From assembly GCA_044226515.1 (NCBI GenBank), contig JBGAGX010000003.1:136721-200720 (forward strand): a stretch of DNA of 64,000 nt. The letters are read 5' to 3'. Origin of the DNA: Flavobacteriales bacterium (GTDB lineage: Bacteria; Bacteroidota; Bacteroidia; Flavobacteriales_F; PHOS-HE28). Position numbers and translations under genes: made by a program. Below the pieces are notes generated by a model. The model saw nothing but the letters and a program-made list of their open reading frames with translations. It was not told where the DNA came from and did no database searches. Shown one piece after another: positions 31,494 through 33,867 of the stretch. The stretch's first letter is position 1. The number at the start of each line of letters is the position of its first letter.

Positions 31494-31530
31494 GTTTTGA
31501 GTTTTCTAAAGTTGTACTTTAGGATTCTCA
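31494..31530. repeat. 37-bp dyad-symmetric element, copy 1
   Basis: GTTTTGAGTTTTCTAAAGTTGTACTTTAGGATTCTCA; core CTAAAGT-TGT-ACTTTAG. Confidence 0.9.
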
Positions 31531-31533
31531 AAC

Positions 31534-32706
31534 ATGCGCTACACCGACCGCGACCTTGGGAACGTCCTGTTGAAGGCCTCCCGCTCCTTCCCCGCCGTGG
31601 TGCTCACGGGTCCGCGCCGCGCGGGCAAGACCGTGCTGCTGCGGAAGCTCTTTCCCAAGGCCTCATATACCCTGCTGGAGGACCCCGACGTGATCGCCCG
31701 CATGCGCGCCGACCCGCAGGGCTTCCTCGATGAGCTGAAGCTGCCCGCGATCCTCGACGAGGTGCAGAACGTGCCCGAGCTCTTCTCCTACGTACGCTCC
31801 CGCATCGACCAAAACCCACGGCGCACGGGTCAGTGGTTCCTCACCGGCTCGCAGGAGGCCGCGCTCATGGGCGGTGTCACCGAATCGATGGCGGGGCGCG
31901 CGGCCGTGCTGCAGCTGTACCCCTTGTCCATCACGGAATCGCCGCGCGTGGGCCTGCTGCACGGCGGCTACCCCGAGGCCATAGCGCGGCCCAAGGGTGC
32001 GGGGCTGTGGTTCAGCAGCTACGTGCAGACCTACCTGGAGCGTGATGTGCGCGCCGTGACCAACGTGCGCGATCTGGCCACCTTCCGGCGCTTCATGGCC
32101 CTACTGGCCACCCGGCACGGGCAGGTGCTCAACCGCACCGAGCTGGCCGCTCCGTTGGGCGTGAGCGTGCCCACCATCAACCAGTGGCTGGGCGTGCTGG
32201 AGACCACCCAGCAGCTGCTCATCGTGCCGCCCTTCTACGAGAACCTGGGCAAGCGCCTCATCAAGTCGCCCAAGGTGTACTACGCCGACAGCGGGCTGGC
32301 CTGCCACCTGCTGGGCATCACCACGGCGGACGAGCTGGAGCGCTCGCCCTTCCTGGGCGCCCTGTGGGAGGGCTTCGTGGCCGCCGAGCTCATCAAGCGG
32401 CAGGTGAACAGCGGCCAGCGCCGCGCGCTCTACCACTTCCGCGACCAGCAGGGGCTGGAGGTGGACTTCCTGGTGCCCACGCCCAACGGCGGGGTGGACA
32501 TGATCGAGTGCAAGGCCTCGCGCACACCCGTGCCCGGCATGGCCGCCGCATTGGCACAGCTCACCAAGGCCTTCGAAGAAAAGCGCAGGCTCGCCCGCCC
32601 CGCACGTTGCTTCATCCTGCACCGGAAGGGCGACCGGCGAACGCCGGAAAGCCTTGCCCATGGCGTGAAAGCGATGGAGCTGGCGGCGTGGTTGGAGCGG
32701 GCTTAA
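31534..32706 (+). CDS. AAA+ ATPase with DUF4143 domain
   Basis: Walker A GPRRAGKT, ILDEVQ, LTGSQ, GGYPE, YLERDV, KSPKVYYADSGL, EVDF..IECK. Confidence 0.9.
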   Translation: MRYTDRDLGNVLLKASRSFPAVVLTGPRRAGKTVLLRKLFPKASYTLLEDPDVIARMRADPQGFLDELKLPAILDEVQNVPELFSYVRSRIDQNPRRTGQWFLTGSQEAALMGGVTESMAGRAAVLQLYPLSITESPRVGLLHGGYPEAIARPKGAGLWFSSYVQTYLERDVRAVTNVRDLATFRRFMALLATRHGQVLNRTELAAPLGVSVPTINQWLGVLETTQQLLIVPPFYENLGKRLIKSPKVYYADSGLACHLLGITTADELERSPFLGALWEGFVAAELIKRQVNSGQRRALYHFRDQQGLEVDFLVPTPNGGVDMIECKASRTPVPGMAAALAQLTKAFEEKRRLARPARCFILHRKGDRRTPESLAHGVKAMELAAWLERA

Positions 32707-32717
32707 GACTCTGGGCT

Positions 32718-32754
32718 GTTTTGAGGTTTTTAAAGTTGTACTTTAGGAATCTCA
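32718..32754. repeat. 37-bp dyad-symmetric element, copy 2
   Basis: GTTTTGAGGTTTTTAAAGTTGTACTTTAGGAATCTCA, 34/37 identical to copy 1. Confidence 0.9.
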
Positions 32755-32795
32755 TGAACGGGCACGCCCGCCATCGTACTTCCACGCGGCCCTTT

Positions 32796-33051
32796 CCGGT
32801 CACTTGTGAAGCATCGGCCACTGCGCCATCCGCCGTACGCCGGACCACCCACCCCTTGGAGCAAGGCACCCACCTTCGCTACATTCAGGCCCTGTTGGGG
32901 CACGCCAGCAGTAAGATACCTTCGCCAAGGCTACGGAGAACAAAGAGAGAGCTACACCCACGTGTCCGCCATAGCTTCAGCGACGGCGGATGTGAGCACC
33001 CGCTACCTGCAAGGCATCGTGAACCCCATGGACAACTTGGACACACCTTGA
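32796..33051 (+). pseudogene. C-terminal remnant of a tyrosine recombinase (integron-integrase-like tail)
   Basis: Fragments across two frames: PVT..LRH..YA..TH.LEQGT.LRYIQALLGHASSK..YTHVS..TRYLQGIVNPMDNL*; interrupted by palindromic inserts. Confidence 0.8.
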
Positions 33052-33182
33052 CGACATCTTCGTCAAAACCTTCGTAAAACCAACCCCAATTGACCGATAG
33101 CACGAAGATCCTCCACAGCCGATACTTCCGGCGATAAACGAAGATCTTCGTATACCCAACGTTAGCTGCAAGCTCACAAACT

Positions 33183-33641
33183 ATGACTAGAAAAGTTATT
33201 ATGAAAGTAACTTTTGCCGTACTCTCTTGTTTCTTATTAACCAGCTGTTACTTTGGCGCAAATGAATCAGGAGGAGAAATAGTAAACAATGTTTACAGCG
33301 CTAGATGGGATGATGACTCCTGGATTTCCTATAGCAAAAATGGCGATGGTATTTGGGATCCGGAAAACGTTATAGTTCGTCATCAAGTTTTTGCAATTGG
33401 GGACTATGATGACTTTATTATCGCAAAACAGCATCCCTGCAAAAACAAACAACCTCACACCATTGACTTTGACGATTTAAAGCCTGACAAAGACATTACT
33501 ATTTATGTAATCATAGATACAAGAAACGACAGCTACATAGTGCATCGTTATCAAAATGAAAATGATTTCAATGAAGCAAAATCGCAATTTGGGATTCCTG
33601 TTAATTTGACTTACAAGTTTTACGCTAAAGAAATTGATTAA
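33183..33641 (+). CDS. AT-rich lipoprotein (DUF3997-like), putative gene cassette ORF
   Basis: Lipobox LTSC; IGDYDDFIIAKQHP motif; strongly AT-rich relative to the flanks. Confidence 0.75.
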   Translation: MTRKVIMKVTFAVLSCFLLTSCYFGANESGGEIVNNVYSARWDDDSWISYSKNGDGIWDPENVIVRHQVFAIGDYDDFIIAKQHPCKNKQPHTIDFDDLKPDKDITIYVIIDTRNDSYIVHRYQNENDFNEAKSQFGIPVNLTYKFYAKEID

Positions 33642-33648
33642 CACCAGC

Positions 33649-33708
33649 AGCTAACAAAGTGTATAGTGCATCCCCTGCGGGATACGCACCATACACAGAA
33701 CGTTGAAC
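33649..33708 (+). mobile_element. attC-like (59-be-like) recombination site
   Basis: AGCTAAC, then the GTGTATAGTGC / GCACCATACAC inverted pair, central ATCCC-CTGC-GGGAT, then GTTGAAC; 60 bp. Confidence 0.75.
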
Positions 33709-33867
33709 GCAATCGCTCGCAGGGCCTCGCGCCGGCGTTCAACACTTGAATGACCACCGCCTGTAGGGAGCACGCGCCGCCCGCTCAGCCCCCCAAGGAT
33801 CGCCGAACCCCGTCCCTGCCGTTCGCCGCTGACCCCGCATCTTCGGGCTGCACCGATCGCCATCCGC

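Follow-up and report, generated by a model that had tools for sequence, protein, structure and literature searches.

A probable integron-like gene cassette captured at a decayed recombinase platform in a Flavobacteriales genome

Introduction

How did a single AT-rich gene come to lie in GC-rich DNA of a Flavobacteriales bacterium, just downstream of what is left of a tyrosine recombinase gene? The question concerns a stretch of 64,000 nucleotides from contig JBGAGX010000003.1 (assembly GCA_044226515.1), referred to here as the window, in which positions 33161-33701 hold a gene for a DUF3997 family lipoprotein followed by an imperfect palindrome. The original prediction for this DNA was an integron-type mobile gene cassette, part of a poorly described Bacteroidota cassette system. 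The answer favored here, with a probability of roughly 85%, is that the unit is a gene cassette which was captured site-specifically at the attachment site of an integron-like platform, the evidence being the precise boundaries of the insertion in related genomes, the complementarity of the cassette ends, a family of hairpin sites that is common to different cargo genes, and a recombinase family that accompanies these platforms.

The integron integrase IntI is a tyrosine recombinase with a required additional domain around patch III (bioRxiv 10.1101/2022.02.06.479319), and surveys of Bacteroidetes with IntegronFinder found only In0 elements and one complete integron, that of Salinibacter (PMC9024848). 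Of 401 genomes of the phylum sampled here, 114 have canonical IntI genes scoring above cut-off, nearly all of them outside the class to which the window belongs.

Boundaries of the cassette

The GC content is 0.35-0.40 across approximately positions 33100-33700 of the window and 0.65-0.72 on either side, and the AT-rich stretch contains one long open reading frame (ORF). The elements on which the argument depends are as follows.

33161-33701, plus strand: gene cassette (the inserted unit), 541 bp with about 38% GC in DNA of about 67% GC; bounds taken from empty-site relatives (33162-33702 under the G|TT convention)
33161-33169, plus strand: 5' end of the cassette, GTTAGCTGC, the exact reverse complement of 33647-33655 and the R' half-site of the would-be circular form
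33183-33641, plus strand: cargo gene for a DUF3997 family lipoprotein (Pfam PF13162), 152 amino acids, the sole long ORF
33049-33160, plus strand: attI-like left arm, non-coding and, across 9 loci of the genus, conserved from the recombinase stop codon to the crossover; its features are a stop-codon hairpin (TGACG..CGTCA), two copies of ACGAAGATC (33102-33110 and 33138-33146) and the end ..ACCCAAC
33702-33768, plus strand: right flank (possible right arm of attI), with an imperfect palindrome GTTGAAC..GTTCAAC at 33702-33743 followed by AATGACCACCGCC at 33749-33761

The ATG of the ORF lies 22 nt past the G of the GTT with which the cassette begins, and its TAA stop codon (33639-33641) lies 5 nt ahead of GCAGCTAAC, which at 33647-33655 is complementary to GTTAGCTGC at 9 of 9 nucleotides. 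These are the core site at 33161, the perfect complement and the two spacings that had been predicted, and they proved exact to the nucleotide. Three further elements of the original prediction are likewise present: the abruptly AT-rich single ORF in GC-rich DNA, on which the GC profile and the ORF agree; the 60-bp imperfect palindrome after the ORF, found at 33649-33708 and predicted to fold as a single strand; and the tyrosine recombinase remnant just upstream, which is C-terminal and lies at about 32797-33051.

A 1.16-kb region was searched against 40 relatives. Genomes of the same genus share with the window the recombinase motif, the 3' end of the recombinase gene together with about 110 nt up to window position 33163, and the right flank from about 33696-33702, and the gap between these shared flanks ranges from 0 to 5.6 kb. 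The site is empty at two loci, L025 (G020:C37) and L032 (G007:C17), where the left arm is joined straight to the right flank as ..CATACCCAAC|GTTGACCGCC.., and other loci have 0.5-5.6 kb of AT-rich DNA between the flanks. When nine left junctions are aligned, they are conserved as far as AAC|GTT and continue into unrelated DNA, and it is exactly at this AAC|GTT, where the attI-like left arm downstream of the decayed recombinase gene ends, that the cassette in the window begins. The number of cassettes per platform is zero at L025 and L032, one in the window and at L023, L026, L030 and L033, two at L024 and four at L027. The closest relative at the chromosomal locus (G018:C159) matches at 94% in the helicase gene and at 96% in the attI arm, and its contig ends at the GTT.

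A right-flank module closes 12 related platforms, standing after the last cassette or, when the platform is empty, directly after the left arm. The module could serve as the right arm of attI, as a terminator or as a binding site, and covariation within its palindrome is weak (3 pairs). It consists of the GTTGAAC..GTTCAAC palindrome plus AATGACCACCGC and is constant whatever genes come next.

The cassettes are also recognizable by their ends. Each unit between the flanks starts with GTT plus 7 nt whose reverse complement is the box that comes before its own hairpin, the end and box pairs including GTTAGGTGCA/TGCACCTAAC, GTTATAGCCA/TGGCTATAAC, GTTGTAGCAC/GTGCTACAAC, GTTGGTGGTA/TACCACCAAC and GTTAGCGGTA/TACCGCTAAC. 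Over 18 cassettes, cognate ends match at 6.6 of the 7 variable positions and non-cognate ends at 3.2 of 7 (permutation p<=5e-5). Such a rule for cognate ends is a hallmark of integron cassettes and is predicted if circular cassettes recombine at G|TT.

The attC-like site and its family

The palindrome that follows the ORF corresponds to one further element.

33646-33708, minus strand: attC-like site, identified from its fold, a leave-out covariance model and near-identical hairpins in locus L034 and a Flammeovirga plasmid

From left to right the site consists of the R'' box GCAGCTAAC (33647-33655), a 3-nt spacer, a hairpin (33659-33696), the 5 nt AGAAC, and the R' box GTTGAAC (33702-33708). 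This is the layout of an attC, an imperfect R''-L''..L'-R' palindrome of 55-140 bp with RYYYAAC and GTTRRRY boxes, with aGCTAAC at 33649-33655, a stem at 33659-33696 and GTTGAAC at 33702-33708. Folded as a single strand, the minus strand of the palindrome is predicted to reach -13.8 kcal/mol (z of -3.45, with 0 of 200 shuffles as good) and the plus strand -12.0 kcal/mol (z of -3.1), and the better-folding minus strand is presumed to be the strand that recombines. An Rfam scan of the window returned two tRNAs only and no match to an attC-type family.

Ad hoc scans for a GTT-7N..7N'-AAC pattern plus a hairpin were too noisy (423 hits versus 209 in shuffled sequence, and 1274 versus 793 for the next version) and were replaced by stricter seeds and a covariance model. 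The model was built from 20 sites at eleven loci in ten genomes, read as the bottom strand with the variable loop trimmed, and its seeds exclude the site in the window and its near-twin. At default filters the family model misses some of its own seeds, and the window's own genome was scanned with a strict script, which located a second platform on contig C45. A covariance-model scan for attC had been proposed as a check on the original prediction, and this leave-out model, run over the 64-kb window, gave a significant match only at 33646-33708 on the minus strand (25 bits, E=2e-4, with the runner-up at E~1).

Sites of the family are 60-135 nt long, with boxes ..YAAC (R'') and GTT.. (R') and an R box of up to about 12 bp. 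In the 20-site alignment the AAC, G, T and GTT positions are invariant and the stem has 15 bp, 13 pairs of which show two-sided changes; 95.6% of stem positions are paired, a figure that drops to 35-45% if the partner column is shifted by one to three. In 19 of the 20 sites a particular stem position is G.U, which in the top strand would be a C.A mismatch, and position 11 of the R box is a G.T wobble of the bottom strand in 13 of 18 cassettes. From these G.U and G.T wobbles, the bottom strand is likely the one that folds, as in integrons.

The geometry of the sites differs from that of canonical attC sites. The attC of aadA1, whose sequence is matched by 1962 plasmid records at >=99% identity (100% for the first matches listed), carries its T and G bulges within the 3' half of the bottom strand, and so do the attC sites of an IntI integron from the same phylum (L097). 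The only bulge in the window's site, a GT, is in the 5' half of the bottom strand. Most sites of the family are free of bulges and have a conserved spacer of 5-6 nt on the 5' side (bottom strand G[G/T]TTT) versus 1-3 nt on the 3' side. The canonical extrahelical bases that the bottom-strand fold was expected to reveal are thus found on the R''/L'' side neither in the window's site nor in the family, and the family model gives canonical attC sites only about 15 bits (E~0.13). The L097 integron (G262:C1, 9334-13072) belongs to another class and has an IntI above cut-off, an attI, two copies of a cassette with a 375-amino-acid ORF, and canonical attC sites of 60 nt.

A stable hairpin straight after a stop codon could also be the terminator of an acquired gene, and a small transposon or miniature inverted-repeat transposable element (MITE) with GTTAGCTGC and GCAGCTAAC as terminal inverted repeats would account for the imperfect 19-nt inverted repeats at 33151-33169 and 33647-33665 and for the AACGTT at both junctions, which resembles a short target duplication. 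The hairpin is not followed by a T-run. The comparison with empty sites shows the insert to run on for 46 nt beyond the right repeat and to stop directly behind the hairpin; one AAC|GTT junction serves every cassette in every locus; and the inverted repeat varies from cassette to cassette yet remains self-complementary, with the hairpin family conserved across different genes. An origin as a terminator or a small transposon is therefore regarded as exceedingly improbable.

The cargo and its exchange between sites

The cargo protein matches the Pfam family DUF3997 (PF13162) with 30.8 bits against a gathering score of 25 (E=3.9e-7), has an N-terminal lipoprotein-type signal ending in LTSC, and has 30 homologues, the best of which is 90% identical, comes from Saonia flava and is named DUF3997 by NCBI. 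This agrees with the DUF3997-like lipoprotein of the original prediction. An AlphaFold model of the protein has a pLDDT of 70, and a Foldseek search against the PDB gave no fold match at E<=0.001. The 90% identity to the Saonia flava protein, together with the 38% GC content of the cassette, points to import from a low-GC pool.

The hairpin of the window is not confined to this cargo. At locus L034 (G019) the short hairpin of the window recurs, at 96% identity over 47 nt, behind an Arr-ms gene for a rifampin ADP-ribosyltransferase (Pfam E=2e-45).

About 5345-5900 of L034 (G019:C1), minus strand: Arr-ms cassette with its own R boxes GTTAGCGGG/CCCGCTAAC, beside a recombinase gene with an internal deletion

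The prediction would have been undermined if this type of attC stood beside no other ORF, and its presence behind Arr overturns that objection. The converse also occurs, as a DUF3997 homologue (49% identical) forms a cassette at L081 (G074) with a different, 125-nt attC-like site, so that the search for the same ORF in other arrays, which had likewise been suggested, found one. The 125-nt site of L081 is identical in a cassette at L027 and nearly identical in one that lies on contig C45 of the same genome as the window. It is thus present in three cassettes of differing length (824 bp, 1377 bp and the cassette with the DUF3997 homologue), two of which have identified and different cargo.

Two other occurrences are of interest. 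The short hairpin type is found at 78% identity on the megaplasmid p1 of a cultured strain, Flammeovirga kamogawensis YS10 (L094; NZ_CP076130.1, at about 465.4 kb), where it lies behind a two-ORF unit among co-oriented small hypothetical genes, with no recombinase within 9 kb upstream. At L078 (Logan contig from SRR23272275, 800-12000) a DUF3997 gene 69% identical to the cargo lies within a run of about 15 co-oriented and functionally unrelated genes, which include those for an acetyltransferase, a methyltransferase, desaturases, MIP, a cupin, a beta-lactamase and EthD. This run has no sites of the modelled type and may be an array with another type of site.

The recombinase

What remains of the recombinase gene beside the cassette is its 3' end.

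32797-33051, plus strand: tyrosine recombinase remnant, the last ~80 codons, identified by three-frame translation, tblastn and DNA homology to the 3' ends of recombinase genes in relatives
31497-31533 and 32721-32757: dyad-symmetric repeats of about 37 nt with the core TAAAGTTGTACTTTA, bracketing the AAA/DUF4143 gene region at 31534-32706

The remnant contains the motifs ..LRYIQALLGHASSK.. and ..YTHV..GIVNPMDNLDTP*, that is, a box II LLGH, the catalytic YTHV and a SPxD-like tail (..NPMDNL), and residues 314-392 of an intact relative, P0001, match it at 41% identity by tblastn. A 37-nt replacement and a 33-nt palindromic insert break it into two reading frames, and about 310 N-terminal codons are gone, with an AAA/DUF4143 ATPase gene in their place. 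The two dyad repeats around this gene occur nowhere else in the genome, and in the closest relative different DNA occupies the place of the AAA/DUF4143 unit. The palindromic insert (32963-32995; TCCGCC..GGCGGA..) is in frame and follows the YTHV, and an insert of the same kind is found in the recombinase of L033.

Neither an IntI nor an intact member of this recombinase family is encoded in the window's genome, which has only two Xer-like genes, on contigs C36 and C14. Since the recombinase is broken and lacks an intact paralogue, the DUF3997 cassette is most likely stranded, and the copy in the window is a fossil, decayed and probably no longer mobile by itself. A second platform, equally decayed, occupies the last ~4 kb of contig C45 of the same genome (minus strand) and comprises the tail of a recombinase of a second subtype with its own type of attI, a 1.37-kb cassette (DUF5343 plus a Swt1-like HEPN protein, HEPN_Swt1), an attC-like site of 125 nt and, once more, the terminal palindrome.

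The properties of the enzyme are better seen in its intact orthologues, of which one serves as reference.

4098-5273 of L023: intact orthologue P0001, 392 amino acids

The best NCBIfam match of P0001 is the integron integrase (TIGR02249) at 222.7 bits, which is under the cut-off of 265, with XerA next at 215.8 bits. Its best relative in the PDB is VchIntIA (E=1.8e-44), in a two-piece alignment that skips residues 200-245 of IntI4. The skipped segment corresponds to the IntI signature insertion (I2) of about 41-46 residues; an insertion of about 41 residues is present in 11 of 11 canonical IntI proteins from other classes of the same phylum and in 0 of 29 members of the family, and it is absent in the host Xer proteins. 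The family has instead an extra N-terminal domain of ~80 residues (residues ~10-82, pLDDT ~90) which, with a disordered linker, amounts to about 115 residues. In a tree built by a quick method with two Xer outgroups, the family and IntI stand apart from the two host Xer proteins (SH-aLRT 99) and the order of family and IntI is a polytomy that fits both a sister and a paraphyletic relationship. Members occur in genomes labelled Flavobacteriales, Chitinophagales, Sphingobacteriales and Bacteroidales, and at one Chitinophagales locus (L076) cassettes of the same kind are chained. Judged by sequence, then, the recombinase belongs to a Bacteroidia-wide lineage that is nearest to the integron integrases and lacks the I2 insertion.

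The IntI-specific domain, which reads the extrahelical bases of the folded attC, is regarded as necessary for integron recombination, and the I2 insertion as the key innovation of the integron integrases. The feature that this domain reads is missing from the sites described above, which fits a recombinase without the domain. These observations bear on whether the cassette is simply a canonical one, in which an IntI, decayed here or acting elsewhere, recombined a standard attC. A canonical integron would explain the R''-L''..L'-R' layout, the GTTRRRY-like and RYYYAAC-like boxes and the G|TT crossover; other classes of the phylum commonly have IntI genes, with the same co-oriented order of intI, attI and cassettes, and the tail of the recombinase resembles that of IntI. 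The intact orthologues of the remnant, however, have no IntI insertion and score below the TIGR02249 cut-off, the window's genome has no IntI, and the sites are free of T/G bulges in the 3' half of their bottom strand, have the spacer asymmetry on the opposite side, and are described by a model in which canonical attC sites reach only the low score given above. It is considered very improbable that a canonical integron was at work.

A second possibility is that XerC/D-like resolvases of the host move the cassettes, in the style of dif modules or IMEX, with the adjacent recombinase as a bystander or helper. The adjacent recombinase is itself Xer-like in architecture and without I2, intact Xer-like genes are present in the genome, and many platforms of the genus have lost the recombinase and kept attI and cassettes. 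Recombinase loss fits the decay of sedentary platforms as well, however, and the sites are hairpins of 60-135 nt with cassette-specific R boxes and a 110-nt attI arm rather than 28-bp, two-arm dif-like sites. Moreover, the attI region always abuts the 3' end of this recombinase family, in genomes labelled Flavobacteriales and Chitinophagales alike. Movement by host Xer enzymes is accordingly judged quite improbable, and capture by the integron-like platform is preferred.

Proposed mechanism and significance

A platform consists, in this order, of the tyrosine recombinase gene, an attI-like site past its stop codon, 0-4 co-oriented cassettes and the terminal palindrome, and a cassette comprises one or two genes together with an imperfect, attC-like hairpin 60-135 nt long. 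In the model proposed here, the bottom strand of the hairpin in a circular cassette would fold, an R box would be assembled from both cassette ends, and the recombinase would exchange strands between G and TT with the AAC|GTT of attI. The inserted cassette would then keep its own R' half (TTAGCTGC..) at its 5' end, and the attI half, GTTGAAC, would come to lie after the hairpin. The recombinase may choose the strand by means of its extra N-terminal domain and the conserved spacer, which is single-stranded and lies on the side of the hairpin opposite to that of the canonical bulges. The DUF3997 cassette would be a stranded import from a low-GC cassette pool.

Several points weigh against this reading. 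DUF3997 homologues 69% and 50% identical to the cargo occur in contexts without sites of the modelled type. The window's hairpin is an atypical, short member of its family, with 25 bits versus 39-55 for most, and its 2-nt GT bulge is absent from most other members. The seeds of the covariance model were chosen by a hairpin scan, so that the pairing percentage and part of the covariation are built in; independent support for the site family comes from the conserved unpaired positions, from the position of the sites by homologous recombinases and from the rule of end complementarity. No cassette promoter was identified, no promoter search suited to Bacteroidota having been made, and expression of the cargo would presumably be by read-through. 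Finally, the link between recombinase and cassette rests on adjacency, and the host XerC/D-like enzymes encoded on C36 and C14 remain candidate catalysts.

The original prediction of an integron-type mobile Bacteroidota cassette stands as far as precise insertion, cognate ends and cargo exchange are concerned, and needs amending in that neither the recombinase nor the geometry of the sites is that of a strict IntI integron. As far as sequence can tell, the system is integron-like in every feature except two, the IntI domain and the extrahelical-base geometry, and because the IntI insertion and this geometry are absent it falls outside the IntI integron family as currently defined. The suggestion that the cassette belongs to a poorly described system is supported by the same-genus comparisons; no description of an integron-like Bacteroidia system with a recombinase lacking the IntI domain was found in the searchable literature, the coverage of which is incomplete.

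A broader reading, considered somewhat more likely than not, is that Bacteroidia own a widespread lineage of integron-type gene capture in which an I2-less recombinase acts on folded hairpins, that its cassette pool, which includes Arr, crosses between hosts that differ widely in GC content (cassettes of 38% GC in genomes of 67% GC), and that it has been under-reported, the copy in the window being a fossil. Under-reporting would follow if the IntI profile used in surveys requires the insertion, since these recombinases would then not be called and Bacteroidia platforms would be missed. If this broader reading is true, the lineage would represent a second solution to structure-specific recombination, one without the IntI domain or extrahelical bases; it would bear on the origin of integron integrases from Xer-like ancestors; and an unsurveyed Bacteroidota cassette pool that includes antibiotic-resistance cargo would exist in wastewater, soil and sea. 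The window contributes a clear contrast between filled and empty site, an attC-like site that at 62 bp is among the shortest in the family, and a view of platform decay.

Comparison with known systems

Sedentary chromosomal integrons with an inverted integrase, whose intI reads towards attI and the cassettes, occur in Treponema and Chlorobium, and L097 is an example from the same phylum as the window. The platforms described here resemble them in having a recombinase, an attI just past its stop codon and co-oriented cassettes; in cassettes made of one or two genes plus an imperfect palindrome with a ..AAC/GTT.. frame and a G|TT crossover; in the complementarity of the 5' end of a cassette to its own inverse core and in the better folding of the bottom strand; and in site types common to unrelated cargo, including the resistance gene Arr. 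They differ in that the recombinase is without the I2 helix region, falls short of the IntI cut-off and bears an additional N-terminal domain with a linker; in that the sites have no T/G extrahelical bases on the R''/L'' side, a 5-6-nt spacer on the R'/L' side instead, and an R box of about 12 bp; and in the conserved terminal palindrome that closes every platform here.

Class 1 cassettes, such as that of aadA1, are similar in the size of the site (62 bp in the window versus 60 bp) and in its general layout, as well as in the single, promoterless-looking gene that begins 22 nt past the GTT. The bulges are on opposite halves of the bottom strand, however, the integrase lineage is different, and the orientation of the class 1 integrase gene relative to its cassettes is not that of the platform described here.

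Xer-dependent modules include the dif modules of Acinetobacter plasmids and IMEX, which rely on inverted dif-like sites of about 28 bp with two 11-bp arms and a 6-bp spacer. A recombinase of Xer-like architecture without I2 and small gene modules between recombination sites are points of resemblance. The platforms of the window and its relatives are set apart from such modules by long sites predicted to fold into hairpins, by R boxes that are specific to each cassette, and by unidirectional arrays which would be built at one site by a dedicated recombinase.

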